DNA of 64,000 nt from an uncultured Thermoprotei archaeon (GCA_965367815.1 CBDUKN010000007.1:32001-96000), one strand, 5' to 3'; positions 21,145-41,739 are shown, counted from the first letter of the stretch. The notes: a model not told the origin generated them from the sequence alone. Program-made: numbers and translations.

Positions 21145-21232
21145 ATTAGCTTAGGCTTAAGAAAAGTATTAATTATTTTCTGTAAACAGTAAAACCGAAA
21201 AATATACTAGCAGTCAAGCGAACTAGCCATAG

Positions 21233-23533: not shown

Positions 23534-23651
23534 ACTATAATATATACTGGATTTACAGTATATTATTTAATCGCCTAAATTTCTTCTCGATCTCGCGGAA
23601 AGCTAATAGTATATGCGTTAAGTAAATTAAAGACTTGTTCAACGAATAGGT

Positions 23652-24527
23652 GTGCACGTATTCATAAGTCATATTTGTCTCCAGTGTCTAGGTAAGCTAG
23701 CATACTACTTCGTATCGAAGACTAAGCTCAGTGAAGAAGAGAAAATAAGGGCTACAGCACACCTCTACAGAAAGATAGCCGAGCTATTTGAAGGAGATTT
23801 AAGCAACTACATGGAGATCTGCGCCAACTTCTACTTAGAAGTATTCAAGGTCACTGGTGAAGAAGACTTATTTGCTGAAGAAAAGAAGCTGAGCAATGAA
23901 ATAGCTTTCAAGCTACTTGACTTAGCTAAACAGCATGCCGAAACTCTCAGCGGAGCAATTAAAGTAGCTGCTGTCGGAAATGCACTAGACTTCGGTACAG
24001 GCGTATACGAGGTTTCCCTAGAAGATTTCAAGAAAGAGTTTTCTGAACTTGTATCTCGGGAATTCGCTATAAACGACTACAGTGTATTCGTAGAAGACTT
24101 AAAGAAGTCTCAGAACATACTCTATGTTCTCGACAATGCTGGAGAAGCAGTATTTGATTTAGTGCTAGTAGAAAAACTGAAAGAATATGTAGATGAAGTA
24201 ATTGTAGCGGCGCGAGACAAGCCTGTACAAAACGACGTGACGGCAAAAGAGGCTCTAGAACTAGGCTTCAGAAAAATAGCTAAAGTTATCAGTACTGGGT
24301 CTAGAGTACCTGGAATTTATTTAAAGACATGTAGCAGCGAATTCATTGAGATCTTGAAGAACAGCGACCTTGTTGTTCTCAAAGGACAGGGCAATTACCA
24401 GTCAATAGATGAAATAAAGAAAGTTAGAAGCAAGCCTACGTACGCTATTCTGAGAGCAAAGTGTCCTCCAGTAGCAAAAGCTCTTGGCGTGAAGTACGGA
24501 GACTTTGTTTTCAAGAAGCTGATTTAA
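23652..24527 (+). CDS. DUF89/ARMT1-like damage-control phosphatase
   Basis: N-terminal CxxC, GNALD, DNAGE, NDVT, KGQGNY, AKC. Confidence 0.9.
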   Translation: MHVFISHICLQCLGKLAYYFVSKTKLSEEEKIRATAHLYRKIAELFEGDLSNYMEICANFYLEVFKVTGEEDLFAEEKKLSNEIAFKLLDLAKQHAETLSGAIKVAAVGNALDFGTGVYEVSLEDFKKEFSELVSREFAINDYSVFVEDLKKSQNILYVLDNAGEAVFDLVLVEKLKEYVDEVIVAARDKPVQNDVTAKEALELGFRKIAKVISTGSRVPGIYLKTCSSEFIEILKNSDLVVLKGQGNYQSIDEIKKVRSKPTYAILRAKCPPVAKALGVKYGDFVFKKLI

Positions 24528-24591: not shown

Positions 24592-25905
24592 GTGTACAAG
24601 AAAATAGTATTCTTCATACTCACACTTATTTCCTCGTTTGTAATAATGTATAGCGTAGTATCGAAGTGTCCTCTACTGCCCGGCATAGACGGTCCCTACT
24701 ACTTAGTTCAGACAAATTATCTCTTAAAGTACTTTAAGCTAAAATACATGGATCCTCCTTTGGCTTTCTTTATTCTAGCTTTCTTCAGATTGTTTATAAG
24801 CGACCCCTTTGTAGCGCTTAAAGTAGGAATAACAGTAATTACGTCAAATATAGCAGCCACTATTTTCCTTTACTCAGATTACTTCACTAAAGACGAAATA
24901 CAGGCTTTCTTAATTTCGCTTATATTTGTCTTAAACAGCACTACATTTAGACTGCTGCAAGACTTCTGGAAAAACATAACTGGCTTCATTTGGATAGTTC
25001 TGTCGCTGTATTTTACTGCAAGAGGGGTAAACGAGAACAACAGAAAGTACTGTATCTTAGCCTCACTATTCATAGTGCTGACCTATTTAACACATATACT
25101 TGACGCAGGAACCATTACCTTGATCTATCTATTTACACCATTTTTTCTTCTAATACACTCTACTAAAAGTGTTAAGAAAGTATGGGTTCAGGTAGCTACA
25201 GCAGCATTAATGCTTGCAGCAGCTTTCGCAGCGCCAATAATTGTCGGAGGAGATATAGCCAAAGGAGTAGCCTTTATTGAAGACTTACTGGAGCTAGAGA
25301 AAGAGGTAGAAGAATTTCCGCCTATTATTGCTGTAAGGTGGTCGTTTACAGGACTTCTCTTCGGTGCAGCCTGCTTAATCTTTTCAATATACTATATTAA
25401 AAGAAAGCCTGTGTGCAGTATACTGGGAGCAATAGGTGTAGCTTTAATAGCGCTAAATTTACCTTTCATTGAAAGAGGCTGGCTATGGAGATTTCAGTTA
25501 ATGAATGGACTTCTCATAACTTTAGCTCTTCCAGTAATTTTAGCGGAAATCGAAGACAAGACCGCTAAAATAGCTATACTTCTTCTAATTCTAGGCTTTG
25601 TTGTATACGACTCTGCCTACTACTTCGACAGAGGACTCCGTATGAGCATATCTTTAGCTGAATACGCTGAAATAAAGCTTCTTGTGAAAAAGCTCCCTCC
25701 AGGCGCAACTCTAGTAGTACCTAATACTAAGCTAAGGTACTGGATTGAAACATTTTGCGAAAATGTAGTTAGACAGCCGACAGGAGCTGAGGGAAAGCTT
25801 ATTCTAGTAATTGAGAAAAGAGTAGTGCACAAAAGACCTCCTTGGCCTGTGTTTTTCAGAGGAAAATTTATTGAAGCATACATTATATTGAAAAAGAGAC
25901 CTTAA
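24592..25905 (+). CDS. Polytopic membrane protein, GT-C glycosyltransferase-like
   Basis: GIDGPYY and YMDPPL after TM1, ~11 TM segments and a small soluble C-terminal domain. Confidence 0.5.
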   Translation: MYKKIVFFILTLISSFVIMYSVVSKCPLLPGIDGPYYLVQTNYLLKYFKLKYMDPPLAFFILAFFRLFISDPFVALKVGITVITSNIAATIFLYSDYFTKDEIQAFLISLIFVLNSTTFRLLQDFWKNITGFIWIVLSLYFTARGVNENNRKYCILASLFIVLTYLTHILDAGTITLIYLFTPFFLLIHSTKSVKKVWVQVATAALMLAAAFAAPIIVGGDIAKGVAFIEDLLELEKEVEEFPPIIAVRWSFTGLLFGAACLIFSIYYIKRKPVCSILGAIGVALIALNLPFIERGWLWRFQLMNGLLITLALPVILAEIEDKTAKIAILLLILGFVVYDSAYYFDRGLRMSISLAEYAEIKLLVKKLPPGATLVVPNTKLRYWIETFCENVVRQPTGAEGKLILVIEKRVVHKRPPWPVFFRGKFIEAYIILKKRP

Positions 25906-25960
25906 GTTTCACAGGGTAGAAGTTTTTTATAATAGATAATATACAGTACCTTGAGGTGTT

Positions 25961-28900
25961 ATGCTTAAAGGGAAATTATTAGCTTTCATACTAGGATTAA
26001 CTCTAATATCAGCGGCTCTGCTAGCGCCTATTTCAGCTGTACCAATGTTTACCATAAGAGGATATGTTAAAACATGGAAAGGAGAGCCTCACACCAATAC
26101 TATAGTCGTGGCATTCGATATAGCAAACTACGAAGTAAGAGGAGTGACTAAAACAAATGCTAGCGGATACTTTGAAATTACAGTACCGAGAGGCTATAAG
26201 TACGTAGTATTTATTCTGCCGCTCAACGCTAATGGAACAGCTCTAAGCCATGTACCAGAAATAGCCGACTTACATTCATTTGAAGACTTAGTTGAAGTCA
26301 CTATAAACTTCAAGGCATACCCAGCAGCATTTGTTAAAGTCTACGGAACAATACACTATGTTGGGGGAGATTGGCTCGAAATATTTTCACTTAAAGTACT
26401 AGATACAAGCGGAACAAGGATATCTGAAGTACTAGACGCAGGTAAAGCAGTATACTCAAGAGAGTTCGTGGGTAAAGGTGAAGTAAAAGTATCTCTTGTC
26501 GACGAATATGGCACAGCGTCAAGTTTCCTCGTATACTATGAAGTAGGAGTAAGGAGAGGAAAACTGCCTGCAGGTCTAGCCGATAAAAGCATAGCTATAG
26601 TTCCTGCAGAAAAACCAGTTATAGTTGAGTTCACGACAAGCATAATAGATAACCGTAAGCCACCGTTCCTTAGAGAACCAATACACAGAGTAAAATTCAC
26701 TATAGGAGATCCACTCAACCCGCTAACACTAAAACCCGGAGAAAAAGTATTATTTGATATCGAGAAAGAGTCCTTGAAGAGAATTATCCAGGAAGTTAGA
26801 AGAGACGTCGATATAGCTGAATCACTCATAGAAGAAATGGAGCGAATGGGCTTCTACCTAGCTCCAGAGAGAGCAGACTTAGCTAAAGCTATAGCGCTAA
26901 TAGAAGAAGCAAAGCTCGCCTATGAGCAGAACCAGCCAGTAGAGCAGATAATAGAGAAGCTTGAGAGAGCATACGTTATAGCGACACAAGTAGTAGCTGG
27001 ACGAGTATTTTTCCTCAAAACAGTTGCTTTAGAGGGAGCGCCTCTTCTCTCATACTTCATAGCACTCTTCGCAGCAGTAATGGCCTACTACTTCTTCGAA
27101 GACCCCAAGAAAAAACTATACTCGTTCATAGCGTTCTTCGCAGCCTTCATGATAATATTCGCGCTATCTTACCCAGGATTCCCACTACTATGGAACAACA
27201 GAAGAGACCTCTTCCTAATCTCAGTATCTACAGCCTTCTTCGGAGTACTCTTCTTACTATTCTACTTACCCATCAAAATAAAGGAAGCAGAGCTCCCAGG
27301 AACATTCAGAAGAGGAGCAATACTGGCAGTAACATTCTCACTTGCAAAGAGATTCTCTAGACTCAAGAAAACTAGAACAGGTATAGTAGTGTTCTCTCTA
27401 GCGGCTCTAATCTGGGCGTTTACAGTACTAGCATCTATTTCAACAGTATACGGCATATGGAGCGCTGAAGTACCTTCAGTAACCAAGGTAAACGCGCTAG
27501 TGGTAAAGCACTTAATAAATGAGACAACTATAAGTTCACTAGGCTATTTCTCTGACTACCAGTGGTTCGTCCAGCAGCTAGGCAACGATAGTGTATCAGT
27601 AGTAGTCTATAACGATCCGACAATTAAGCTAACTATACTCATTACTTCACCTGAAGGAAAATCTGTTGAAGTCAAAGCCTTCATGGGAGTCTCAGAGATA
27701 GAAGACAAAATTACAGGCATATCAAAAATAATAGTTGAAGGAGACTGGTCAAAAGTAGAGGAAAAGAACTCTGTCTTCTTACCTTCAACTCTAGCTGAGA
27801 AGCTTGGAGTGAAAGTAGGAGATGTAGTTAAAATAGAAGTATATAGGCCGGGAGTAGAAATACCTGTATCAGAAAAATACGTTGTCGCAGGAATATTTGA
27901 TGAACTGTCTCTAGACAGAATAAAAGATATCGATGGAACACCGCTTAAACCACTAGTTCTAGTGAAAGGAGGCTTTGCTCCAGCAAACTCAACAGACATA
28001 ATTATTGGCAACTGGGAGTACTTACTCAAAGAAGTTCTCCTTGAAGAGAAAGCACTATTCTCAACAGTATTTAAGATATACAGAATAGCTGCAGTAGGGT
28101 CATCAGATGTACTGAAGAGCGTAGCCAGAAGATATATTGAAAGAAAAGGTGAAGGCTACTATGTTTACGTAAATACTGAAGGCAAGTGCTACAAACTTTT
28201 CTTCGGACAGAAAGTAGAAAACATCTTAATGAGAAACGTTGACTTCATAATACCAATAGCAATAGTAATCTCGGTAGTACTTGTATCAATGTACAGTATA
28301 GTAGAGGAAAGAAGAAGAGAAATATTTATCTTCAACGCTATAGGCTTCAATCCAATGCACATAGCCTTCCTATTCTTAGCGGAGTCAATAGTCTACGGAC
28401 TCATATCAGGAGGCCTAGGATACATAGCTGGAATAGTCACCTTCAGAGTAATGGCAACATACTTCTCGTCACTAAACCTCCTAGTAAGAGAAAAGCTAGA
28501 GTGGTACTGGAGCATCATAGCAATATTTATCTCAATACTAGTAGCCATGATCGCTTCCTTCAAGCCAGCACTCAAAGCAGCCATGATGTACACTCCATCA
28601 AGAGTACGCAGAGTAAAGGCCACTGAGGCAGAAAAACTCAAACGCGAAGAAAAAATCCTAGTAACCTACGTAGGCAAGAGGTATCTACTATCAGCTAAAA
28701 TCAAGGAAGATGAGGCCGTAATATTCTTCTCGTTTATATACTCAAGGCTCAAGGACATGGAGTCAGGATACACTGAGAGAGTAGAAGATCTGCAGGAATA
28801 TGATGAAGAAGAGCTTCCCGACGGAACACTAGTAAAGAGATTCACCTTCAAGTGCGTGCTCTTAGTTGAAGGAGAGCGCGTAGTCATAGACAACGACTTG

Positions 28901-29071
28901 AGGTGCACAAAGAGTTCTAAAGAGAAGTTCTATAGAGTAGAGCTCTACGCGAAGCCTCATGGCGAAAAAGAAATCCCGCTGAGGTACCTTGATAGAGTAG
29001 CCTCAATGATCAACGATATACTCAAGTCATGGGAAGAAGAAAGAAAGAGGCTGCTGTCGTCGCGCCGATAA
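25961..29071 (+). CDS. Large FtsX/MacB-like permease with N-terminal Ig-like ectodomain
   Basis: Signal peptide, carboxypeptidase-regulatory-like beta domain, 3 TM, MacB-type LAEKLGVKVGD loop, ERRREI..FNAIG, FLAES, TPS tail. Confidence 0.82.
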   Translation: MLKGKLLAFILGLTLISAALLAPISAVPMFTIRGYVKTWKGEPHTNTIVVAFDIANYEVRGVTKTNASGYFEITVPRGYKYVVFILPLNANGTALSHVPEIADLHSFEDLVEVTINFKAYPAAFVKVYGTIHYVGGDWLEIFSLKVLDTSGTRISEVLDAGKAVYSREFVGKGEVKVSLVDEYGTASSFLVYYEVGVRRGKLPAGLADKSIAIVPAEKPVIVEFTTSIIDNRKPPFLREPIHRVKFTIGDPLNPLTLKPGEKVLFDIEKESLKRIIQEVRRDVDIAESLIEEMERMGFYLAPERADLAKAIALIEEAKLAYEQNQPVEQIIEKLERAYVIATQVVAGRVFFLKTVALEGAPLLSYFIALFAAVMAYYFFEDPKKKLYSFIAFFAAFMIIFALSYPGFPLLWNNRRDLFLISVSTAFFGVLFLLFYLPIKIKEAELPGTFRRGAILAVTFSLAKRFSRLKKTRTGIVVFSLAALIWAFTVLASISTVYGIWSAEVPSVTKVNALVVKHLINETTISSLGYFSDYQWFVQQLGNDSVSVVVYNDPTIKLTILITSPEGKSVEVKAFMGVSEIEDKITGISKIIVEGDWSKVEEKNSVFLPSTLAEKLGVKVGDVVKIEVYRPGVEIPVSEKYVVAGIFDELSLDRIKDIDGTPLKPLVLVKGGFAPANSTDIIIGNWEYLLKEVLLEEKALFSTVFKIYRIAAVGSSDVLKSVARRYIERKGEGYYVYVNTEGKCYKLFFGQKVENILMRNVDFIIPIAIVISVVLVSMYSIVEERRREIFIFNAIGFNPMHIAFLFLAESIVYGLISGGLGYIAGIVTFRVMATYFSSLNLLVREKLEWYWSIIAIFISILVAMIASFKPALKAAMMYTPSRVRRVKATEAEKLKREEKILVTYVGKRYLLSAKIKEDEAVIFFSFIYSRLKDMESGYTERVEDLQEYDEEELPDGTLVKRFTFKCVLLVEGERVVIDNDLRCTKSSKEKFYRVELYAKPHGEKEIPLRYLDRVASMINDILKSWEEERKRLLSSRR

Positions 29072-29072
29072 A

Positions 29073-30659
29073 ATGTTAAGTAAATATTTGGACAAAGAAT
29101 TTTTGTTAACTTTATTTATTCTAATTATTTTGCTTATAGAAATAATAGCATTATTTATACTACCTAGCTTTAAAGTAAAAAAGTTAACTAGAGAAGAATA
29201 CTTAGCGAAAGCTATTGAAGCCTACGAGTGGATGATGCAGTTCCAGATAACTCCTCCCGGCACTCCATGGGGATGGCACCTGAACTGCAGAGACGCATGG
29301 GGAGGACTAGCAGGCTACTACACCAGACACTGCAAGTGGGCAGCAGTGTACGGTGCTGAAAGCTTCTATCAGCTCTACATAGCCTCACACGACGTAGGCT
29401 GGTTCTTGGAACTCGGAGTAGACCTATATAATATAACCGGCGAAGAAAAGTACCTTAAAGCTACTGAACTAGCAGCACAGTGGGCTCTCAGAATACAAGT
29501 AGGGTACAGTTCTTGGCTTAAAAAATTCGAAAAGCGCTACATTATGCCTCAAAAAAGTGAACGCAGTGTTAGCTGGAGATACGTTCCTGGTATAAAGTTT
29601 TCTAATGAGGTCATTGGAGCATACACTGAAGGAATGTTTGTTTTCAGCGGCGAACCACCATATCTTCATGATTGGAGTGAAGGAGTATGCTACGCTGAGC
29701 CAGCACTTTGGGTTGCGCCCGAGCATGTCATACCTATAGCTAAAGGTTTACTAAAACTATACTTAGCAACAAAGAATAAAACATACTTAATGTCAGCTAT
29801 GAGGGCACTCGACTTTATAGCTAGAATGCAGTCTCCTGAAGGCGGTATATACACGTGTTATCCTCCGAATGCCTACGGAATTAGAATGAGTGATACAGCT
29901 AGTGCAGCTGAACTTTTCCTTTATGCCTACATAGTGGTAGGAAACAAAACTTATCTCGAAAGAGGACTTAAGGCATGTGACTTCATGATAAGCAAGCAAG
30001 TAGCTTACGGCAGGTGGAGAGGAGTGCTGCCTCACTTGTCTACAGCTGGAGGTTCTTGGAGAAAACACAGTTATTTTACAGGCGACGCTGCTGAGGCTAT
30101 TATAGCCTGGTTAAAAGCATATGAGCTTACGGGTGAATATAAGTATCTGGAGGCGGCTGTAAGAGCAGCTTACTTTCTTCTTAGAATGCAGGAAACAGAC
30201 GCCAGTAAGCCTTGGGGTACTAAGATATATTCATGGGATAAGCGTGCAGTAGGAGGATTCTACTGGGCCTATGTGCCAGGCTACGGCATCTTGGAATACC
30301 AATTTGTTTCATCAACTACGTCAGCCGCCATAGCTTTACTCAAATTATACACTGTAGTCGAAGAACCTATTTTCTTAGAAAGCGTGAACTTGGCTTTAAA
30401 ATGGCTTCTCGAGACAGAAATATATTCTCCTTCAAACACATACTTAGATCTTCCCGGCTTAACCGTAGTAAGCGATCCTCACGGACTTTATAAAAGCGGA
30501 TATGTCCCACTATACGGTAAGTATTACGATGAAATCCCCGGAACAATGACAGGAGACCCCGAGCAAGGCTTCTGTGTAGCAATGGCTGCCTCCGGTCCCT
30601 GCTACCTCTTCCTTGAAATATACAGATTATACCATAAAGTATATAATCAGCAGAAGTAG
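29073..30659 (+). CDS. Membrane-anchored alpha/alpha-barrel protein (six-hairpin glycosidase or prenyltransferase-like fold)
   Basis: N-terminal TM anchor; repeated Y..TG...YL..A..A..(W/F)...Q helical hairpins. Confidence 0.65.
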   Translation: MLSKYLDKEFLLTLFILIILLIEIIALFILPSFKVKKLTREEYLAKAIEAYEWMMQFQITPPGTPWGWHLNCRDAWGGLAGYYTRHCKWAAVYGAESFYQLYIASHDVGWFLELGVDLYNITGEEKYLKATELAAQWALRIQVGYSSWLKKFEKRYIMPQKSERSVSWRYVPGIKFSNEVIGAYTEGMFVFSGEPPYLHDWSEGVCYAEPALWVAPEHVIPIAKGLLKLYLATKNKTYLMSAMRALDFIARMQSPEGGIYTCYPPNAYGIRMSDTASAAELFLYAYIVVGNKTYLERGLKACDFMISKQVAYGRWRGVLPHLSTAGGSWRKHSYFTGDAAEAIIAWLKAYELTGEYKYLEAAVRAAYFLLRMQETDASKPWGTKIYSWDKRAVGGFYWAYVPGYGILEYQFVSSTTSAAIALLKLYTVVEEPIFLESVNLALKWLLETEIYSPSNTYLDLPGLTVVSDPHGLYKSGYVPLYGKYYDEIPGTMTGDPEQGFCVAMAASGPCYLFLEIYRLYHKVYNQQK

Positions 30660-30666
30660 GAGGTAG

Positions 30667-32520: not shown

Positions 32521-32905
32521 ATACTGCACACATTACCGTCCAAGAAAGCAATAATTTTAGTTCAATTAACTTTAAATTTATCTTTCCTGTAGCCAATCAA
32601 TCTTTAACACACTACTATAAAATTAGTACTAATTTCGGCAGCAATATTCCTATTTTTTGCTCATAACTACCTTTACGTTCTTATAAAAAGACTTTATTAA
32701 AGCAGTCTTAAACTAAATGCGTTAATAACTAAACATATGGCTCCTAGCAACAATTTTCATAAAACCCTTACGACACGTTATGACCCTGAGAAGAAATTTG
32801 ACAAAGGTAAAAAATACTGACGGTTCATATATCTTTTTCGGAAAGCCTTAAATAATTTTGTTTTTCTAGTTAAAACAGCATTTGATACATATTGAGGGAT
32901 AGAAT

Positions 32906-34933
32906 ATGGTGGAGGAGACGAAAGTAAAAGAAGTAGAGGCTCTAAAAGTACTCAAATCACCGCGCCTCATAATCCTCTGGATTATAATTCTACTAGTATT
33001 CATCCCCTATCAAGCATTCAGACTCTATGGATGTTACGGCAACGGAACATCGTTCATGAGCCTAGTGCTCTTACTAACAGCTATAATCGGCTTATTTAGC
33101 AAGAAGTTTAAGCTATCACCTCAAGAAGCAACAATAGCCTTTGCCATAGCGACAGTAGCAGCTGATATCTCAATCTATACAGCTTTCTACGATAATCCAC
33201 TATCAGGCATACCCTTCATTAACCTATATGGCGGACCAAACCTCGATAAAGTAAAGCAGTGGATACCTTCATGGATGTTTATACCTACAGAAGTACTAGA
33301 GCCTGCCAGAAATGGTGGAGCAATGCTCCCACTAGGGCCGCTCTTACCAGTACTAGCTTTCTTAACAATATTCTTAATAGCACTCAAGTTGCTACAGCTA
33401 GCCACAGCAGGCATTATTGCAAGACAGTTTGTAGAAATAGAGCGCCTTCCATTCCCAGCCTTCATGCCAAGCCTCTACGTAATCAAATACTATTCCGAAG
33501 AAGTAGGAAAGAAGCCTAGACTACTATCATGGAAAGGCAACACTCCGTTCTGGCTGGGCTTCATCATAGGATTTCTAATAGATGCTATAGCTATTATGGA
33601 AGTATTTAGCGAAGCTGTCACAGGAAAAACCTACATACAGCTTCCTGCAAGCACAGGATTCATAGGACAGTTCGTAGTTGATCTAAGGTTCCTAGAACCG
33701 TACTTGCCGGGCGCAATGCTGTACTGGTATCCAGGACTAGACTTCGGTTTCTTCCCAGTCGCTCTCTTCTTGCCATTAGATGTAATGGCTACGGCAATTC
33801 TATGGTTCTTCCTATGGTATATCTTCTATCCAGCAACAGTTAATATCCTTGGAATATATCCGACAAAAGTTACCGCAGGACAGCTAGGAGGAGGTGCTGT
33901 AGGAGCATGGCCATTTACATGGGTTGGTCAGATAGCAGTCCCATTTGCATTAGGCCTCTATCCACTAATATTTAGCTGGAGGTACTTCAGAGACTTCTTC
34001 AGAAAAGCTTTTAAGAGAACAGACCTCAATCCATCGCTCCCAGAAACTCTGCCAGTCTACACGGGTATTGTAGCTTTCATAATATTGCTAGCTCTGCTAG
34101 CGACTATAGGCATGCCAATAGTGCTAGCGTTTCTCTGGCTAATAGTTCTGACAATCTGTTGGACAGGTATGGCTAGAGTAGCAGGCGAATACTTCACTCA
34201 GCCACTGGCCTGGGCGTGGGGAGACCTCTACAGAGGATTCATGGGCTTCTCTCAGACAGTCATGGGCTGGCCTAACCCCTATCCATCTAAAGAAGCATGG
34301 GGCACTATGATGGGCATGAGGCTGACTTACAATACTGTAGAAAGAGAGGTAGACAGCACATGGGGCTTCTTAGGCTGGTACAGGGTAGCGAGAGACACTA
34401 ACACAAGCTGGAAAGCAGTCTATATAGCCCAGCTCGTAGCGGTAATTATTGGGGTAATTCTTGCCTGGCCAGCTATCTACGGTCTAGCCTACTACAGAGG
34501 TCTTGAGGTAGGCTGGAACGGATACTTTACAGCTACATCCATCAGATACGCTGCTAGAAGATTTGTGGACTACGGTCTAGCAGGAACAGTAAATGCTATT
34601 AGTCCATGGAACATGCTAAAGATCGGATGGCTCTTTGGAGGCATCGTAATGGTCTTTGCTATAATGTGGCTTAGACTCAGATTCCCATGGTTCTTCCTCA
34701 ACCCAGTAGGTATGCTATGGCAACACCCATGGTGGCTTGGTGCAACTATGCTAGCTTTCGTTATAAAGTACATCGTTATCAAGGTGGGCGGTGCACAGGC
34801 TAATGAGAAATACTTAATACCCTTCGCTACCGGCTGGGCTTTCGGATCAGCTATAGGTGGACTAGTGACATACTGGCCCGAAAACATTTATAGAGCGTTC
34901 TTCAACAGACTCTTCCCGTACTTCTGGTGGTAA
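32906..34933 (+). CDS. OPT-superfamily-like polytopic membrane protein (DUF6785/DUF6784-like)
   Basis: About 15 TM segments, LSPQE, RQFVEIERLPFP, RFPWFFLNPVG. Confidence 0.7.
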   Translation: MVEETKVKEVEALKVLKSPRLIILWIIILLVFIPYQAFRLYGCYGNGTSFMSLVLLLTAIIGLFSKKFKLSPQEATIAFAIATVAADISIYTAFYDNPLSGIPFINLYGGPNLDKVKQWIPSWMFIPTEVLEPARNGGAMLPLGPLLPVLAFLTIFLIALKLLQLATAGIIARQFVEIERLPFPAFMPSLYVIKYYSEEVGKKPRLLSWKGNTPFWLGFIIGFLIDAIAIMEVFSEAVTGKTYIQLPASTGFIGQFVVDLRFLEPYLPGAMLYWYPGLDFGFFPVALFLPLDVMATAILWFFLWYIFYPATVNILGIYPTKVTAGQLGGGAVGAWPFTWVGQIAVPFALGLYPLIFSWRYFRDFFRKAFKRTDLNPSLPETLPVYTGIVAFIILLALLATIGMPIVLAFLWLIVLTICWTGMARVAGEYFTQPLAWAWGDLYRGFMGFSQTVMGWPNPYPSKEAWGTMMGMRLTYNTVEREVDSTWGFLGWYRVARDTNTSWKAVYIAQLVAVIIGVILAWPAIYGLAYYRGLEVGWNGYFTATSIRYAARRFVDYGLAGTVNAISPWNMLKIGWLFGGIVMVFAIMWLRLRFPWFFLNPVGMLWQHPWWLGATMLAFVIKYIVIKVGGAQANEKYLIPFATGWAFGSAIGGLVTYWPENIYRAFFNRLFPYFWW

Positions 34934-35200
34934 ACTAGAAATAGTTTAACAATTTTTTATTTTATTTTTAATGTGTTTTAAATAGTTAGAGTCTTCTTAT
35001 GCTGTATATGCCTTAATTGAGGCGTAGGAAGTATCCTTTACTACAAGTTCTCGTTATGGTTATGTCTAGTACTAGGTAAACCGGGAGTCATAATATGGAA
35101 GCTTAGCTGACACAATTTTAACAATTATTGGGTTATCTCTATTGAAAAATCTTTTATAAGAACATAAATTAGGTTTATATAGCCAAAGGTTTACTGTTAA

Positions 35201-38200
35201 TTGATGGTGATAAATTCAAAGAAAGCTTTTACACTAATATTCATTATAGTTCTGAGTGTAGTGATTGCCACGGTACCTGAAGCAACTGTTTCTCGCAGAG
35301 AAACAATTAACTGGGAGGATCTTGAAGCATTCTTAAAGAACTTCAATTACTCCAAGGTTCTCAAACATATCGAATATTTTGGCTCGCTTGATAGTCGCTT
35401 GACAGGGTATCCCGGTGCCTGGGAAGCTCTACGCTATATATATTCAGAGCTGGAGCTCTATGGGTACGACTTAGTCTATTTCCAGAATTTCACCACAGTT
35501 GTTCCAGTAGTGCGAGAAGCTTACATTGAAGTTAAGAGCGGCGAGACTGTCAGCAAGTTTAAAGTATACCCTGTTTGGCCTAATCTTGTTCAAACATCTC
35601 CTACTGGACCCGAAGGTATCTCGGGGAAGTTGCTCTACTTAGGTAAAGGGGACTTAGAGAGCATCAAGGGAATAGACATAAAAGATGCTATTGTTCTCCT
35701 GGATTATAACAGCGGAGACAATTGGGTGAAGTTAGCCGAGCTAGGAGCAAGAGCTGTAATTTTCATAGAGCCTTTATCAACCAACAGATTCGAGTCTTTC
35801 AATAAATTTGTCTACGTAAATCTTTATTTCCCTAGAGTCTATGTTGACAGAAAGACTGGTATCGAACTAAAAAAACTGTGTGAAAAAGATGCCGCTACAG
35901 CTAGGCTTATTCTAGATTACTCGATGGAAGAGGTTGTTTCAGCGAATGTAGTTGCTTTCCTGAAAGGAAAAGGCAGCACTAATGATTCTCTTGTTTTAGC
36001 AGCATATATTGACGATTGGTCTCCTGTACCCGAGCTCGCTAGCCACTATGATAGCGCCTGCGGTGCAGCAGTCTTACTCGAAGTAGCACGCTTACTAGCT
36101 AAAAGTAAGCCAGAACTCAACGTCATTGTAGTATTCTTTACGGGTCACTGGGAAGGTTTATGCGGACCTAGAGCTTTCGTAGAAGAGGTACTCGAAGTTT
36201 TTGCTGACCGCACATTGCAGAACCATCCAATATGGAACCAAAGTGTTCCTAAAACATTTCTTTCATTGGATTTATCTACTGGTAGCAGTAGTGTTGCCCT
36301 ACTCCACTCAGGCGGATTTTATCACGTAGCAGGTCCCAGTATTTTTGAAGAATGCGTAGACATGTTCAGGGGAATGGATTTCCTTCTAAGAGAGTATGGT
36401 AGGAGTAACAGGCTAGCTGACTTAGTCAAAAAATACTCAGGCAGGGCTCCTGAAATATATTACCAGCTTATAGATCAATCTGGAGGCGCTTACGTGGAGG
36501 CTGGTGAGCTAGAATACTTTACTCCTGTGCCCTACAAGTACATCGCTGATGTAGAGCCATGGCTTCAAGCGGGACTACCAGGCTATACGCTCTTTACTGC
36601 TTTCGACTACAGGTTTACATGGTTCACTCCTCTTAAAGAACGAGTACACTTTAACCCGGATAACCTTAAGCCTCAAGCATACTATGTTGCAGCACTATCT
36701 TACATTTACTCCAACGTCGTAACAAGTGATTACCCACCGAGGAGAGTATGGGGCCCGACTCGCTACTATTTCCCAGGACCCTTCGCCCCATTTGTTCCGG
36801 GCTTCACTAAGATGAGAGGTCAAGTCGTAGTATATTTGCCTATTTCGCCTAGACAGTATGAGCCGCTAATGAATGAAACTATAGTAGCTATAGTGGATTC
36901 AGAGGATCAATACAATATTTTCAACTATATTTTCTTAAAAACAAAGCCTAATGGAACTTTTGTTGTCCATGGTCTAGCCATAGATAGAGGAGGGGGAGCA
37001 AGAACTTATATGGCTAGGCTCTACGTAATTGACTATAAGAACAAGGGAAGAATTCTCTATACAAATGATTACGGCAAATATGGTGCTGAAGCAATATACA
37101 CTACGAGAACGTTCAGTGTGAGAGAAGGAGTCTATGGATGGCCGCAGCCTTTGCGTTTCGTCGTATTCAAGTGTGCCAGCATAACTATGTTTAGTGTAAC
37201 TTTTCCTCAAGGAATGCTTGACTTATACAACTACATGAGTATATACAAGACTCTTCAAGCCCGAGATGTTTCAGTAATAGTTAGAGAATTTACATCTCAC
37301 TCAGAGGTATATCACTATGGTTATGAAGTAGACCCTATGTCTAGGATACTAGTTGTCTATGTCAAGCCTGAAGAGAGAATAGAAATAGAAGTACACGTTA
37401 GGTCTCAGGAAGGGCCAATCTACTTAACAATTCTACTTTTAAATGCTTCTGAAAAATACCCGGAGGGTGCTGGTTACTATCTTAATGAGCCGGGAGAATC
37501 TCTGGTTTTATTAAAGTCTACTTTGCACTACGTCGAGAACTTCTACTGGCTAAGTAGATATAGAATAGACTTGGCTGCGAGGTTCGGTGTCTTTGACGCG
37601 GAGTCTCAGAGAAGTTTGAGGATGCTTGAAGAGTGGCGTAATTTAACTAAAAAGTATTTAGAGGAAAAAGATTATAGTAAAGCCTACTATGCTTCGCTAA
37701 TCGCTTGGGCTTGGGCACAAAAGCTCTATTACTCGTCGAGAGGGCTTATTCAAGGCTCATCTACAACTACTGTAGTCTACTTCGTTATGTTGATCCCATT
37801 TGCTTTCGTGCTAGAGAGACTTTTATTTGAGTTTTACGAGGGCAGAAAAAGACTCTTAACAATAGCGTGTATCTTTGCAATATTTATTGTCTTGATGTGG
37901 CTTAACCATCCAGGTTTCCATTTAGTAGCGAGTATGCCTACACTGTTGCTAGGCTTCGTTATACTAACTATTTCGGTAGTAATAGGTTTCCTACTCTACA
38001 CAGATTTCCAAGGCGTAATGTGGAGAGTAAGGAAAAAGACTCTTGGAGTACACTTCGTAGAAGTGAGTAGATGGGATGTCATGGTTTCGTCGCTTTACTA
38101 TGGTGTAGTAAATATGAAGAGGCACAAGGTTACTTCGCTTCTTACTCTGACAGCAATAGTCATCATAACAATGTCGCTAATATCACTTACATCAATTACG

Positions 38201-39802
38201 ACGCATACTGTTCTAAAAACATTGAGTATTACTGCTGAGCCTAGTTATACAGGGCTTTTAGCTAGGTATGTCTCTTATGATACCTTGCCGGAATCGTTTG
38301 TGGAGTGCCTAAAGGTGTTAAGTGAAGAAGAAGTAGCTAGACGTGCCTGGCTTTATGGGCCTATTGAAGGATCGACTCTATGGGGAGAAATACCTGTAGA
38401 GTATGAGGGTAAGAAAGAAACTGTAAGAGCTATAGTAGGCTTAGATGAAGTAGACGGTAAGGTCTTAGGCATAGAAGCCGCTACTATTTATAGAAGATGG
38501 AGTGAGCTTTTCCGCGAAATATCGCCCGACGTAATATCTTGTATAATAAACCGTAAGCTCGCAGAATTCCTTGGCATAAAGTCTGTGCCTGCGAAAGTAA
38601 AAATATGGGGCATTGACTTTATAGTAGTCGATATATTTGATCCAGCTGCACTCGGTGGAGTAAGAGATATTGATAATGAGCCTATAGCTCCTTTCAATAT
38701 ATGGTCTACTGAAGCAGGGGCATCTGGCATCGTTGTTACAGAGAGGCTTCAGTGGGATACTATTATAATTATTCCCTACAGTGTCTTAGAAAAGTTCCCT
38801 GGCTCTATAAGAGCGAGCACAGCTGTTGTAGGCGAAGACTACACGAAACTAGATAAGTTTGCCAGAATACTCGCGGAAATGACCTATAACATGTATCTCT
38901 TTGTCTCTGACGGAAAGAAAGTGAAAGGATATGTTTCGTTAGTAGGTCTCGCTGCTAGAGGATGGTCATTCTTACTACCGGCTATAGTTATAGCTTCGCT
39001 TATAATGTTCAATATGATGATTTCTCTAGTACAGCAAAGAACAAATGAAGTTAAAACTCTTTCAGCTCTAGGTCTTGCTCCACTACATGTTGTTGGCCTC
39101 TTCTTCTCTGAAGCTATAGCCTATGCGCTCATAGGAGGAGTAATAGGATATACTACCGGTATATTTGTACTCAAGGCTTTGACACCACTAATGGGCCCCG
39201 GCTTCTATCCCAATTACACTTCAGGTGCAGTAGTGTTAGCGATAGCACTTTCATTTGTCACTGTAATAGTACCCTCAATTATTCCTGCCTTCAGAATGGG
39301 TGCTCTCGTAACACCATCGCTTGAAAGAAAATGGAAGATTACTACTAAACCTAGAGGAGATATATGGGAAATTCCTACGCCGTTTAGAGCAACTAAGGTA
39401 GAAGCTCCCGGCGTGCTTCTTTATGTTAAAGAGTTTCTCGATGCTCATAGAACAGAAAGAGCCCATAGATGGTTTGCTTCACTTGAAGAAGCTAAAATAA
39501 CCTCATTTGAAATGGAGGGTAAAAAAGGCTATGCGCTTAAAACTAGAGTAATGCTCTATCCATGGGAGGCTGGACTAAAACAGGAAGTTGAAATAGCTGC
39601 GTTACCAGAAGACGGTATTTCTCGATTCACTGTAGCGCTGCGCCTCGAGTCAGGGCCAAGAGAAGTCTGGATACGTTCCAACAAGGCGTTCCTAGATATC
39701 CTTAGGAAGCAGTTCTTATTATGGAGAAGTATTGTTCCTTCTGAGAGAAGAGAATACGTTAAGAAGGCTTTAGATCTTGTGGGCTTGAAGGAGGGTGAGT
39801 AG
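35201..39802 (+). CDS. Giant FtsX-like permease fused to a PA/M28 peptidase-like ectodomain
   Basis: Signal peptide, SRLTGYPG, PA insert (GARAVIF), AAYIDD, DSACG, GHWEG, LDLSTG, then 3 TM, MacB-type loop, QRTNEV..LSALGL, TPSLERKW. Confidence 0.82.
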   Translation: MMVINSKKAFTLIFIIVLSVVIATVPEATVSRRETINWEDLEAFLKNFNYSKVLKHIEYFGSLDSRLTGYPGAWEALRYIYSELELYGYDLVYFQNFTTVVPVVREAYIEVKSGETVSKFKVYPVWPNLVQTSPTGPEGISGKLLYLGKGDLESIKGIDIKDAIVLLDYNSGDNWVKLAELGARAVIFIEPLSTNRFESFNKFVYVNLYFPRVYVDRKTGIELKKLCEKDAATARLILDYSMEEVVSANVVAFLKGKGSTNDSLVLAAYIDDWSPVPELASHYDSACGAAVLLEVARLLAKSKPELNVIVVFFTGHWEGLCGPRAFVEEVLEVFADRTLQNHPIWNQSVPKTFLSLDLSTGSSSVALLHSGGFYHVAGPSIFEECVDMFRGMDFLLREYGRSNRLADLVKKYSGRAPEIYYQLIDQSGGAYVEAGELEYFTPVPYKYIADVEPWLQAGLPGYTLFTAFDYRFTWFTPLKERVHFNPDNLKPQAYYVAALSYIYSNVVTSDYPPRRVWGPTRYYFPGPFAPFVPGFTKMRGQVVVYLPISPRQYEPLMNETIVAIVDSEDQYNIFNYIFLKTKPNGTFVVHGLAIDRGGGARTYMARLYVIDYKNKGRILYTNDYGKYGAEAIYTTRTFSVREGVYGWPQPLRFVVFKCASITMFSVTFPQGMLDLYNYMSIYKTLQARDVSVIVREFTSHSEVYHYGYEVDPMSRILVVYVKPEERIEIEVHVRSQEGPIYLTILLLNASEKYPEGAGYYLNEPGESLVLLKSTLHYVENFYWLSRYRIDLAARFGVFDAESQRSLRMLEEWRNLTKKYLEEKDYSKAYYASLIAWAWAQKLYYSSRGLIQGSSTTTVVYFVMLIPFAFVLERLLFEFYEGRKRLLTIACIFAIFIVLMWLNHPGFHLVASMPTLLLGFVILTISVVIGFLLYTDFQGVMWRVRKKTLGVHFVEVSRWDVMVSSLYYGVVNMKRHKVTSLLTLTAIVIITMSLISLTSITTHTVLKTLSITAEPSYTGLLARYVSYDTLPESFVECLKVLSEEEVARRAWLYGPIEGSTLWGEIPVEYEGKKETVRAIVGLDEVDGKVLGIEAATIYRRWSELFREISPDVISCIINRKLAEFLGIKSVPAKVKIWGIDFIVVDIFDPAALGGVRDIDNEPIAPFNIWSTEAGASGIVVTERLQWDTIIIIPYSVLEKFPGSIRASTAVVGEDYTKLDKFARILAEMTYNMYLFVSDGKKVKGYVSLVGLAARGWSFLLPAIVIASLIMFNMMISLVQQRTNEVKTLSALGLAPLHVVGLFFSEAIAYALIGGVIGYTTGIFVLKALTPLMGPGFYPNYTSGAVVLAIALSFVTVIVPSIIPAFRMGALVTPSLERKWKITTKPRGDIWEIPTPFRATKVEAPGVLLYVKEFLDAHRTERAHRWFASLEEAKITSFEMEGKKGYALKTRVMLYPWEAGLKQEVEIAALPEDGISRFTVALRLESGPREVWIRSNKAFLDILRKQFLLWRSIVPSERREYVKKALDLVGLKEGE

Positions 39803-39804
39803 TT

Positions 39805-41739
39805 ATGGGGAGGTTTAGGTTATTCAATGAAGAAGAAGGATTAACTTGGAGGTCGTTTTTAGCAATAGTGTTTTCAGCGGTAGTAATACTTCCTATACAA
39901 ATTTACATGACTCTAGCTACTCCAATATCAGTAGCTTGGCCCGCTGTAATTCTATTGCTCTTCACTGAGCTTGCCTATTTCTTCCACTCGCCTCTATCCA
40001 GACAGGAGGGCTTCATAATATATTTCGTCTCATCAGTAGCTATAGGAGGATCGGTACTCGTAGAGGGAATGATACCTTTCCTTAACTTCCCCTACCGCGT
40101 ATACATGGTTCAAAGCCCCTACTTCAAGGCACTAGGCTTCGATAAAGAGGTGCCCTGGTGGTTTGTTCCGCCTATATCTTCAGAAGCTATACTGAAGAGA
40201 ACTCTGCTTCACCCAGACTGGCTATTCTACATAGGACTGCTTATCTTAGGCTTCATCATATATCTCGGCACAATACTGCCTATGACCTTCATATTAGCTC
40301 AGCTCTACATAGAAATAGAGAAACTGCCATTCCCTATAGGAAGAGTACAAGCCGAGACAATAATCAGCTTGACTGAAAGAGACCCTGAGAGATTCGATAA
40401 ATTCATACTGTCAGCAGTAATAGGAGTAATATATTCACTCATCCTCTACGGCTTCCCAATAATAACGCTAACATTCTTCGGCAAAGCATTTTCTGTTACA
40501 GGGTCTATGATATGGTCGTTCCTCGACTTGACTCAGGCACTACAAGTAATCATACCGGGAGCAATCTTCGGCGTATCGCTAGACCTCCTCAACGTAGCTT
40601 CAGCATGGGTCATTCCCTCTTACCTAGTGATTACAGCAACTATAGCATCTATACTAGCCTATGTTGTCGGAAACGCTATTGCGCTAAAACTTCCGCTAGA
40701 TATATTCAAGTGGTGGCAACAAGACTGGTTCCCTGGAGCAGGACTAGTCTGGCTCTACCAGCGCTCGTACTTTGACTTATGGCTTAGTGCTTACATAGGT
40801 GTATCGATAGCTGCCGGTATAATGCCGTTTATCCTCGAGTACAAGAACTATGCCAGAGCTTTCTCTAATCTAAAATCTCTCCCCGAGAGCGTGAAGAAAG
40901 CAGGGTACATATCGCTGACTCCTCTTCTCACAGTATACTTCCTTTCCGTAGCCGCCTCAATAGCGCTATTCAAGTATCTTGTGCCTAGATTCCCCATAAT
41001 ACTGCTTCTGCCTTTCGTTGCCTGGGGCTTCATATGGCCTTTCATCAGCGCCTGGTCTATAGGTATGACAGGATTTGCTCCAGCCCAGCCCCCGATGCTC
41101 AGAGAGGCAACTATTCTCTTCAGCGGATACAAGGATCTAGATGTATGGTTCGCTGGATGGGTTGCTCAGCCAGGAAATGCTCCAGGAGTAATAGTGAATG
41201 CATTCCAAGTAGGCTACTGGTGTGGAGTAACTCCGAAAACATACCTCAAGGCGGCTTTCATGGCAATGCCTCTGCTCTTCATATTCTCGCTAATATACGT
41301 CGACATGTTCTGGCGCATGGCTCCAATGCCCTCAGCCTTCTACCCATGGATCGAGGTAACGTGGCCTATTTCTGTGCTAAACTGGGTTATCTGGCCTACA
41401 TTCGTGAGAAAAGGCTTCCTGCCTACAATAAGCTCAGAGTTTATAATAGGGTTCTTCTTAGTATCAGCGATTCTCGCAGTGGTCTTAAAGATACTTAAGC
41501 TACCTCTAGCAGTGCTAATAGGTGTTCTCTGGGGAATTACTTCTATGCCTCATCCGCTAGTAGGAGCAACAATAGGAGTAATTGTGGGCAAGATACTCGA
41601 AAAGAAGCTTGGTAAGGAAAAGTGGGACCGCGATAAAGTAGTCATAGTAGCTGGCTTAACTCTAGGAAACGCTGTAGCAATAGCTTTCGCCGCCTCGTTG
41701 CTACTAATATCGAGGTCGCTATGGGCTCTACCATACTAA
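39805..41739 (+). CDS. OPT-superfamily-like polytopic membrane protein
   Basis: GLTWRS, LSRQE, QLYIEIEKLPFP, ~15 TM segments; starts 2 bp after the upstream giant permease. Confidence 0.72.
   Translation: MGRFRLFNEEEGLTWRSFLAIVFSAVVILPIQIYMTLATPISVAWPAVILLLFTELAYFFHSPLSRQEGFIIYFVSSVAIGGSVLVEGMIPFLNFPYRVYMVQSPYFKALGFDKEVPWWFVPPISSEAILKRTLLHPDWLFYIGLLILGFIIYLGTILPMTFILAQLYIEIEKLPFPIGRVQAETIISLTERDPERFDKFILSAVIGVIYSLILYGFPIITLTFFGKAFSVTGSMIWSFLDLTQALQVIIPGAIFGVSLDLLNVASAWVIPSYLVITATIASILAYVVGNAIALKLPLDIFKWWQQDWFPGAGLVWLYQRSYFDLWLSAYIGVSIAAGIMPFILEYKNYARAFSNLKSLPESVKKAGYISLTPLLTVYFLSVAASIALFKYLVPRFPIILLLPFVAWGFIWPFISAWSIGMTGFAPAQPPMLREATILFSGYKDLDVWFAGWVAQPGNAPGVIVNAFQVGYWCGVTPKTYLKAAFMAMPLLFIFSLIYVDMFWRMAPMPSAFYPWIEVTWPISVLNWVIWPTFVRKGFLPTISSEFIIGFFLVSAILAVVLKILKLPLAVLIGVLWGITSMPHPLVGATIGVIVGKILEKKLGKEKWDRDKVVIVAGLTLGNAVAIAFAASLLLISRSLWALPY

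Follow-up and report, generated by a model that had tools for sequence, protein, structure and literature searches.

FtsX-like and OPT-like membrane proteins encoded together in a Thermoprotei archaeon, and a candidate ATPase engine of the MacB/LolD class encoded elsewhere in the genome

The 64,000-nucleotide stretch of DNA analyzed here (the window) derives from an uncultured Thermoprotei archaeon (GCA_965367815.1, CBDUKN010000007.1:32001-96000) and corresponds to G000:C7:32001-96000 of the home genome, G000, which is 2.45 Mb in size and 99.4% complete. Positions 24592-41739 of the window hold a cluster of seven open reading frames (ORFs), all on the + strand, that specify proteins of 437, 1036, 528, 617, 675, 1533 and 644 amino acids (aa). 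The last three genes form a triad in which a giant FtsX-like protein is flanked by two OPT-like proteins, OPT-a and OPT-b (Table 1). The intergenic gaps are 55, 1, 7, 385, 267 and 2 bp in order, and three junctions measure 1-7 bp, as an earlier note made from the sequence alone had described for seven co-oriented genes. A motif scan detected the Walker A motif [AG]xxxxGK[ST] in none of the seven proteins, and the sole nucleotide-binding domains (NBDs) in the window are those of two half-transporters of ABC_membrane+ABC_tran architecture at 17068-20585, which lie 4 kb upstream and belong to a different ATP-binding cassette (ABC) class. The earlier note had proposed from this that the system has no ATPase. 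The proposal holds within the cluster, but is not supported for the system as a whole: NBD orthologues are encoded in G000 and beside triads in other genomes, as set out below.

Table 1. Coordinates of the cluster genes, of domains of the 1533-aa FtsX, and of the candidate engine genes. Positions without a genome label refer to the window. TM, transmembrane helix; AF2, AlphaFold2; pLDDT, predicted local distance difference test.
Feature	Position	Strand	Basis
ORF1, polytopic PTPS_related (GT-C-like) protein, 437 aa, ~9-10 TM by hydropathy	24592..25905	+	PF10131
Giant FtsX, 1036 aa	25961..29071	+	PF02687
ORF3, alpha/alpha-barrel-like protein, 528 aa, N-terminally anchored	29073..30659	+	Pfam
FtsX, 617 aa	30667..32520	+	PF02687
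OPT-a, DUF6785 + DUF6784 polytopic carrier-like protein, 675 aa, first of triad	32906..34933	+	Pfam
Giant FtsX, 1533 aa, centre of triad	35201..39802	+	Peptidase_M28 + FtsX
PA + M28-like ectodomain, residues 31-520 of the 1533-aa FtsX	35291..36760	+	AF2 + Foldseek
Beta-rich middle ectodomain + helical hairpin stalk, residues 521-830	36761..37690	+	AF2 secondary structure
Three extra TM helices, then MacB-type core	37757..39355	+	Hydropathy + profiles
C-terminal cytoplasmic domain, residues 1386-1533, conserved, no Pfam family	39356..39799	+	AF2 pLDDT 93.9
OPT-b, divergent OPT-family carrier, 644 aa, ~15 TM	39805..41739	+	Homology
C9 ATPase, MacB/LolD class	G000:C9:63012-63734		63-82% identity to triad-adjacent NBDs
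Mini-FtsX, 212 aa, four TM, no ectodomain	G000:C9:63737-64375		Adjoins C9 ATPase
Second, paralogous ATPase	G000:C4:10332-11063		63-82% identity to triad-adjacent NBDs

The three FtsX/MacB-like proteins predicted by the earlier note were confirmed by PF02687 scores of 43.7 (1036 aa), 28.0 (617 aa) and 42.9 bits (1533 aa) against a cut-off of 25.5. By hydropathy, each follows the order TM1, extracytoplasmic domain and TM2-4, with extra TM helices upstream. Every score obtained with the NCBIfam equivalog models for LolCDE, FtsEX and MacB was far below the cut-off, e.g., 41.1 compared to 362 for lolCE, and paralogues match MacB_PCD below its cut-off. The 1036-aa protein comprises a signal anchor, an ectodomain of ~330 aa, an extra TM bundle, a MacB-type core and a cytoplasmic tail of ~150 aa. 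It matches the lolCE and ADOP models in part, along with the home-made profiles FtsXNTM, FtsXecto2 and FtsXcore, and its paralogues at C3:130739-133777 and C5:48748-51909 each adjoin an OPT-a gene. The label 'Ig-FtsX' given to this protein by the earlier note was upheld for FtsX, whereas the Ig part draws solely on a weak, sub-threshold CarboxypepD_reg/Ig-like match at the start of the ectodomain (18.1 compared to 32.3 bits). The 617-aa protein consists of an N-terminal TM bundle, an ectodomain of ~250 aa, TM2-4 and a tail of ~110 aa, with a partial match to FtsX_Gpos; a 36% identical homologue is located 3' of the triad in another locus (L002). The 1533-aa protein is likely to start at the ATG at 35204. 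It has six full-length paralogues (E 1e-61 to 1e-191) and orthologues in both archaea and bacteria with 22-81% identity.

The loop between TM2 and TM3 carries the motif [EQ]RxxE[IVY] in all three window FtsX proteins, at residues 783 (1036 aa), 406 (617 aa) and 1279 (1533 aa), and reads Q-R-x-x-E-V in the last of these. Among 22 orthologues of the 1533-aa protein R1280 is invariant, and E1279 and E1283 are at least 90% conserved. The motif also is present in the mini-FtsX described below, in a conventional FtsX of the genome, and in most paralogues. In MacB, the TM2-TM3 loop forms the major coupling helix, in contact with the NBD, and passes NBD closure on to TM2 (PMC5985334). Retention of the motif suggests that the window FtsX proteins are ATPase-coupled.

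OPT-a matches DUF6785 (47.2 bits) and DUF6784 (29.0 bits) in Pfam and has six further paralogues in G000 (on C1, C3, C5 twice, C12 and C24); the jackhmmer set built from it contains 13 ORFs, six OPT-b-type proteins among them. OPT-b starts 2 bp past the stop codon of the 1533-aa giant FtsX. It has five paralogues, each positioned directly 3' of an M28-type giant FtsX. Both OPT-like window proteins fall short of a match to PF03169, the OPT/YSL family, and OPT-b matches no Pfam family at all. Nevertheless, OPT-b is considered OPT-like because 13 of 22 database homologues carry PF03169 and a paralogue at C3:121891-123291 scores 60.7 bits (cut-off 25.8). The OPT-a and OPT-b families align with each other over 594 columns (hhalign 99.9%, E 4e-32). 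The two OPT-like proteins of the earlier note therefore stand as relatives of the OPT/YSL family through the homologues of OPT-b, with which OPT-a is aligned, although both fall below the family model and Pfam places OPT-a under DUF6785/DUF6784. OPT carriers work on their own as proton-coupled transporters and import peptides. No description of an OPT member with an ABC partner was found in the searchable literature, which omits most subscription journals.

The PA/M28-FtsX label was corroborated for the 1533-aa protein by a Peptidase_M28 score of 42.9 bits (cut-off 21.3) and by structure prediction. An AF2 model of residues 28-832 (pLDDT 83) retrieved 2ek8 (E 2.5e-27), PaAP, BSAP, GCPII and the transferrin receptor with Foldseek, and the matches in the PDB span only about the first 500-600 residues of the model. 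In an HMMER alignment to 2ek8, H-H-D-S is replaced by Y-I-D-D, which substitutes Tyr for the His of the HxD site, and A-E-E is replaced by G-H-W, such that the catalytic and ligand Glu-Glu pair becomes His-Trp; the last two M28 metal ligands were read from the consensus only and are not firmly assigned. The Glu-Glu pair is missing from all 30 fused homologues that were aligned, where G-H-[WYF]-Q mostly occupies the position. Two M28 paralogues that stand alone, without FtsX, one within the window at 49790-51463 (G000:C7:81790-83463) and the other at G000:C18:31285-32550, keep H-x-D, D-N and A-E-E. Replacement of the catalytic residues suggests that the domain binds rather than cleaves, and it looks like a binding or otherwise altered module instead of a canonical di-zinc peptidase. 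The PA and M28 fold is common to the giant FtsX ectodomain, GCPII and the transferrin receptor, and the transferrin receptor likewise is a non-catalytic member of this group. Nicastrin is another non-catalytic M28/PA relative. Compared to such relatives, G-H-[WYF]-Q at the former Glu-Glu site is specific to the giant FtsX family.

The remainder of the 1533-aa protein is less readily classified. The middle ectodomain (residues 521-830) gave no fold match, as Foldseek hits to the 805-residue model reach the PA/M28 part only, and its profile, FtsXmid, is kept in paralogues. The MacB-type core consists of TM1, an extracytoplasmic domain of ~240 aa, and TM2-4 with the coupling loop. The C-terminal cytoplasmic domain resembles helix-grip, START, AHSA1, KA1 and BamC-like folds at middling Foldseek TM-scores of 0.3-0.45, and its best structural Z of 8.8 (root-mean-square deviation 3.0, 111 aligned residues) is in the range of models without a clear match. 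As these fold matches are only middling, no function is drawn for the domain. It is widespread, with 1,589 representative clusters at 50% identity (E<=1e-3), and is situated at or near the protein C-terminal end among the 150 matches listed; full-length carriers among these mostly measure ~1,430-1,900 aa, with a maximum of 3,053 aa.

The home genome contains 18 FtsX matches in all. Four are in small genes (212-390 aa), each directly beside an ABC ATPase, and the 14 others are in open frames of 617-1533 aa. No intact NBD gene was found within 7 kb of the giant FtsX loci except for the unrelated half-transporters of the window. Searches with phmmer, jackhmmer and home-made domain profiles revealed approximately seven copies of the triad OPT-a, giant M28-like FtsX and OPT-b in G000, on C1, C3, C5 (twice), C7 (the window) and C24, with a partial copy on C12. 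The giant FtsX of the triads is built from a signal anchor, the PA/M28-like domain, the middle domain, three extra TM helices, the MacB-type core and the C-terminal cytoplasmic domain. Other giant FtsX proteins differ in the ectodomain. The ectodomain of a 1200-aa protein at C3:116339-119941, encoded after a penicillin amidase gene (C3:114207-119941 for the pair; L103:207-5941), is of the Phospholipase B/AAT (Ntn-hydrolase-like) type, and a CarboxypepD_reg-like ectodomain is shared by the 1036-aa window FtsX and its C3 paralogue. Thus, the giant FtsX proteins of G000 bear several kinds of hydrolase-like heads.

Certain paralogous copies are irregular. The M28-type giant FtsX of 1318 aa at C5:40313-44269 (L104:1313-5269) stops short of TM2-4 and the C-terminal domain and overlaps at its end with the next OPT-b gene; this copy may be truncated or decaying. 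At C12:22907-25357 a giant FtsX is split into ORFs of 601 and 170 aa by one TAA stop codon, and probably is a pseudogene or a sequencing error. ABC ATPase fragments (one of 93 aa) with in-frame TGA stop codons at C20:43972-44554, 6-7 kb 3' of a 1312-aa giant FtsX, look like a decayed NBD gene. At C24:8946-12072 (L101:2946-6072) two paralogues of ~516 aa with weak DUF4861 matches and a coiled-coil tail are interposed between OPT-a and OPT-b.

The distribution of the triad in other organisms was assessed with an OPT-b profile, which yielded 345 confirmed places in contigs from one genome per species; the best 80 of the 345 were taken with 10-kb flanks. A giant FtsX gene is present in 58 of the 80 loci, comprising all 24 archaeal loci (Thermoprotei, Bathyarchaeia, Brockarchaeota and others) and 34 of the 56 bacterial loci (Desulfobacterota, Verrucomicrobiota, Planctomycetota, Latescibacterota and others). 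OPT-a also is present in 20/24 archaeal and 21/34 bacterial loci with giant FtsX, and the giant FtsX and OPT genes often overlap or are 1-8 bp apart. This adjacency in two domains of life substantiates the view of the earlier note that the cluster represents an uncharacterized envelope system with OPT-like proteins alongside FtsX-like ones, and shows that it is conserved; that the two are physical partners is a suggestion that currently draws on synteny.

An ATPase gene frequently accompanies the bacterial triads. An engine-type NBD of the MacB/LolD class, defined as at least 60% identical to the NBD of the C9 or C4 ATPase of G000 (Table 1), is situated beside the triad in 19/34 bacterial and 2/24 archaeal loci with giant FtsX, and a mini-FtsX with four TM helices in 21/34 and 1/24, respectively. 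Overall, 21 of the 58 loci with giant FtsX have an engine-type NBD compared to none of the 22 loci without, and several bacterial loci that lack a linked ATPase end at a contig boundary. The assignment is specific: 25 of 41 NBD segments in the loci match the C9 or C4 NBD best (63-82% identity), compared to ~50% for other MacB-type NBDs of G000, and the other 16 are unrelated ABC genes. Similarly, 22 of 23 small FtsX ORFs match the C9 mini-FtsX best, the exception being a homologue of the 617-aa window FtsX. Three Verrucomicrobiota loci with two NBD genes (L056, L057 and L064) each have one C9-type and one C4-type gene. In Desulfoferrobacter suflitae DRH4 (L079) the genes for mini-FtsX, NBD, giant FtsX, OPT-a and OPT-b follow one another in a single row. 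The comparison of homologous clusters with and without NBDs that the earlier note had proposed therefore went largely against its ATPase-free interpretation, as a cognate LolD/MacB ATPase was recovered at the bacterial and archaeal frequencies given above.

In G000 itself the corresponding genes are unlinked to any triad. The C9 ATPase adjoins the mini-FtsX gene, whose TM2-TM3 loop is strongly conserved, and a paralogous ATPase is encoded on C4. By eye, the Walker A, signature, Walker B and H-loop elements of the C9 ATPase are intact. Its NBD matches MJ0796 (E 1e-73), solved LolD chains (E ~1e-54 to 1e-57) and YbbA (E 3e-52), and scores with the LolD, MacB and DevA models below their equivalog cut-offs (236.8 compared to 307.75 bits for LolD). 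The engine genes reside among housekeeping genes, namely those for PcrB, a CBS protein and a metallophosphoesterase on C9, and ABCE1/RLI, THUMP and CGI-121 on C4, with no other membrane partner nearby. The same arrangement recurs elsewhere. Four of five archaeal triad genomes possess mini-FtsX (50-91% identity) and a C9-type NBD (79-99%) away from the triad locus that was fetched; two engine-type NBDs each are present in G000 and in four of five archaeal triad genomes, with G002 left out. All four bacterial genomes whose triads are unlinked to an engine despite ample flanks encode a mini-FtsX and NBD pair at another site.

Co-occurrence was evaluated further in 251 genomes of the phylum that are at least 80% complete, with thresholds of E<=1e-8 for DUF6785 and E<=1e-30 for mini-FtsX. 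DUF6785 was detected in 48 genomes and mini-FtsX in 49, with both in 46 and neither in 200. These genomes are related and not independent, and the co-occurrence spans about a dozen families. The two genomes that scored for DUF6785 only, G050 and G195, encode a divergent mini-FtsX of 189 aa and both C9-type and C4-type NBDs 3-4 kb from a single triad. Both are complete archaeal genomes of 1.6 Mb in which the whole system, consisting of mini-FtsX, two NBDs, OPT-b, OPT-a and giant FtsX, is assembled in one 16-kb neighborhood (G050:C1, L106; G195:C1, L107). One genus includes six genomes with only one DUF6785 match each, and in these mini-FtsX is 8-9 kb away from it; the one such locus that was annotated (G125) has a 1058-aa FtsX, OPT-a and OPT-b at the DUF6785 site. 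Mini-FtsX is always single copy, and at least five scored DUF6785 matches are present in many genomes.

The pairing of giant FtsX with mini-FtsX was evaluated by complex prediction using alignments for both proteins as input. Residues 830-1533 of the giant FtsX with mini-FtsX gave a score of 0.38 (0.38, 0.43 and 0.38 in separate runs) compared to 0.00 for the best control, with at least 76% contact agreement between runs and pLDDT of at least 67 for the partner. The mark applied is reached by 58/80 solved complexes and 2/110 mismatched pairs, and both of the latter, together with 7/80 solved complexes, score at or below 0.60. As solved heterodimers of the LolCDE type exist, the pass may reflect likeness to these structures. 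Thus, the modeled interface lends weak support to the pairing.

Taken together, the cluster is likely to be the substrate-facing part of a modular, undescribed ABC system of type VII (MacB/LolCDE-like) in which one shared engine serves interchangeable FtsX/OPT modules. The core module would comprise OPT-a, giant FtsX with its non-catalytic-looking PA/M28-like ectodomain, and OPT-b, to which two further FtsX proteins, the alpha/alpha-barrel protein and the GT-C-like protein would be additions of this lineage. The motor would be encoded outside the window by the mini-FtsX and ATPase genes at G000:C9:63012-64375 and by the second ATPase gene on C4. Each giant FtsX would pair with mini-FtsX, in the manner of LolC with LolE, on a dimer or heterodimer of the two ATPases, and ATP binding would push the TM2-TM3 coupling loop and thereby shift the large ectodomain by mechanotransmission. 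In G000 the single-copy engine would serve ~15 giant FtsX paralogues. Material captured or processed by the ectodomain, probably peptides for growth, most likely would cross the membrane through the OPT-like pair. Hence, the system probably captures or processes peptides or proteins outside the cell and takes them up via the OPT pair. Uptake is favored because OPT carriers import peptides, the module is multiplied in sediment and hot-spring heterotrophs, and the cell envelopes of the organisms are unrelated.

A more elaborate version is offered tentatively. Here, the system would be a hybrid of primary and secondary transport into which modules plug. The engine would be shared in trans by at least 12 giant FtsX proteins with M28-, Ntn-hydrolase- or Ig-like heads, and the M28 type would be complexed with two OPT proteins such that ATP-driven capture and feeding are joined to proton-driven carriage.

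Several observations weigh against a shared engine with OPT-linked modules. The engine NBD is absent from the window and from 22/24 archaeal loci, and therefore the link in archaea rests on co-occurrence in related, non-independent genomes. Mini-FtsX was not found in two archaeal triad metagenome-assembled genomes, G002 (1.4 Mb) and G260. Conversely, three genomes (G009, G083 and G245) have mini-FtsX without DUF6785 at E<=1e-8, and in G245 no C9-type NBD accompanies mini-FtsX. In 22/56 bacterial loci, mostly of Armatimonadota, the OPT-b-like gene stands alone. The weakness of the predicted interface likewise counts on this side, as does the M28-like domain itself: without canonical catalytic residues, the peptide substrate is a guess.

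The solitary OPT-b-like genes in bacteria also bear on an alternative in which the OPT-like proteins are co-regulated neighbors only, acting as independent secondary carriers for uptake or export without forming a physical complex with FtsX. The self-sufficiency of proton-coupled OPT carriers fits such an arrangement. However, giant FtsX and OPT genes adjoin in every archaeal locus and in the bacterial majority noted above, overlapping or 1-8 bp apart across two domains of life, and two distinct OPT paralogues are kept together at most of these loci. This alternative is possible but somewhat doubtful.

The composition of the motor could differ from that proposed. MacB and FtsX are homodimers (PMC5985334), and the engine ATPases might correspondingly drive giant-FtsX homodimers, with mini-FtsX as a separate homodimer or an assembly or regulatory factor. 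The modest heterodimer score would be in keeping with this organization, and each of the two NBD paralogues could belong to a different type of complex. Nevertheless, mini-FtsX is almost confined to triad genomes in which it is single copy, occurs at 22/58 triad loci, for the most part immediately next to the engine-type NBD gene, and as a four-TM FtsX without an ectodomain has no evident output of its own. Homodimeric giant FtsX therefore is judged improbable.

A system directed outward is assigned similarly low credence. In this scheme the compound exported by OPT would be a peptide, a glycopeptide or lipid-linked, and the ATP-driven ectodomain would process or expel it for biogenesis of the envelope or S-layer. 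Known type VII systems do act on material at the outer face, where they drive efflux, extract lipoproteins or control hydrolases (PMC5985334), and the window adds GT-C-like and alpha/alpha-barrel proteins. Nonetheless, these two genes are outside the conserved core, the triad is shared by archaea and diderm bacteria with unrelated envelopes, and its five to seven or more copies in several archaeal genomes fit diversified nutrient capture better than one biosynthetic step.

Finally, the proposal of the earlier note that FtsX-like proteins work without an ABC ATPase, energized by proton-driven OPT-like subunits, is very improbable: the lack of an NBD gene among the seven genes or beside the ~15 giant FtsX genes of G000, the lack of a linked engine in most archaeal loci, and the extra conserved cytoplasmic domain of giant FtsX would suit it, but mini-FtsX and one or two NBDs adjoin the triad in bacterial clusters and single-copy archaeal genomes, orthologues of both are present in G000 with near-complete phyletic co-occurrence, the coupling-loop motif is conserved, and the C-terminal domain is no stand-in for an NBD because it also is present where ATPase genes are adjacent.

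The shared-engine system as reconstructed above is similar to LolCDE in that two unlike FtsX-type permeases would share separately encoded LolD-class ATPases. In the accessible part of the source, two different FtsX-type subunits, LolC and LolE, can share one ATPase dimer (PMC5985334). The differences are extensive. One subunit is devoid of an ectodomain, whereas its counterpart measures 1,000-1,900 aa and combines a PA/M28-like domain with three additional TM helices and a cytoplasmic domain at the C-terminus; a pair of OPT-like carriers comes with the system; all LolD, LolC and LolE model scores are far below the cut-offs; and the FtsX-OPT system occurs in archaea. To our knowledge, archaea lack the Lol pathway. 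FtsEX, which acts with EnvC, PcsB, CwlO or RipC, offers a parallel in mechanism. There, a MacB-fold ABC complex sends ATP-driven movement to an extracellular hydrolase-type module without pumping through the membrane. In the FtsX-OPT system, in contrast, the hydrolase-like module is fused to giant FtsX and appears to be without the M28 catalytic pair, the module is multiplied per genome and tied to OPT, and FtsX model scores are far below the cut-offs. Moreover, the engine would be unlinked and shared, unlike those of LolCDE and FtsEX.

MacB of the MacAB-TolC system resembles giant FtsX in its FtsX domain, in the extracytoplasmic domain that separates TM1 from TM2, and in the TM2-TM3 coupling helix. 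However, the NBD is not fused in the FtsX-OPT system, the pair of transmembrane domains (TMDs) probably is heteromeric, and genes for an adaptor or outer-membrane duct were not seen with it. YbbAP-TesA also is a type VII ABC system with an extracytoplasmic hydrolase (PMC12646458), and YbbA is among the relatives of the C9 NBD listed above. In that case YbbP is a fused double permease and the esterase is a separate partner, with no OPT component mentioned in the accessible portion of that report. More generally, we know of type VII ABC systems (MacB, LolCDE, FtsEX, BceAB and YbbAP) only from bacteria, each as a self-contained operon.

No description of the FtsX-OPT system, DUF6785 or DUF6784 (PF20581/PF20580) was found in the searchable literature, subject to the gap in subscription journals noted above. 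The system would consist of five or six genes conserved in archaea and at least five bacterial phyla, in which an ABC mechanotransducer is joined with two OPT-family secondary carriers and several archaeal genomes multiply the substrate-facing module while keeping one engine elsewhere. For neither the ABC nor the OPT family do the sources consulted describe a hybrid assembly of this type, with conservation extending from Thermoproteota to Desulfobacterota and Verrucomicrobiota. If correct, the interpretation would provide a function for DUF6785 and DUF6784, would explain the 'orphan' giant FtsX genes of many metagenome-assembled genomes, and would represent a new coupling of ATP-driven and proton-driven transport with relevance to polymer harvest by Bathyarchaeia and Brockarchaeota, which are heterotrophs of sediments and hot springs. 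It also sounds a note of caution for annotation: a cluster without an ATPase gene does not prove an ATPase-free system.

The two remaining cluster genes are less widely conserved. The label GT-C-like that the earlier note gave to ORF1 agrees with a match to PTPS_related (PF10131; E 1.1e-7, 31.1 bits with a cut-off of 26.4, profile positions 5-307 of 621), a family that we take to be a member of the GT-C clan. ORF1 has no paralogue in G000 and an orthologue with 60% identity at the same position in the congeneric genome G001, and is a lineage-specific addition to the cluster. For ORF3, the label of an anchored alpha/alpha-barrel protein likewise agrees with weak family matches: it matches C5-epim_C (38.1 bits) and Pec_lyase (29.5 bits), with weaker matches to GH76 and GH127, and hydropathy indicates a single TM helix at residues 11-29. 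No paralogue of ORF3 is present in G000, and the query turned up a homologue in one of four related genomes (G001). It was dropped as a core component, as it was not found with this query in the other three genomes. The conserved core thus appears to exclude both the GT-C-like and the alpha/alpha-barrel genes. The two long spacers of the cluster (385 and 267 bp) are AT-rich with TATA-like runs, and three transcription units therefore are plausible. Among public sequencing runs, window positions 32906-41739 are represented in three DNA runs of hydrothermal-vent metagenomes, one of which may be the source, and in no listed RNA run.

From the upstream ABC genes to OPT-a, the genes of G001 are arranged identically, with 59-83% protein identity, and the congeneric locus (L001) continues with giant FtsX and then OPT-b. 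The half-transporter genes upstream are adjacent with a 1-bp overlap, and probably specify a heterodimeric exporter. They were considered as the missing ATPase and rejected: the proteins have their own TMDs and are 29-39% identical to similar bacterial genes near triads. In Desulfobacterota loci, similar ABC genes of 829 aa are located 3' of triads. Just 3' of the cluster, after a DUF763 gene, an ATPase gene of the AAA_14 and DUF4143 type (43105-44541) is distinct from ABC NBDs. The interval between the ABC genes and the cluster (20578-24527) encodes a 4Fe-4S protein, a 606-aa YheC/D-like ATP-grasp protein, a small helix-turn-helix protein and an ARMT1-like phosphatase, and the order of these four genes is kept in G001.

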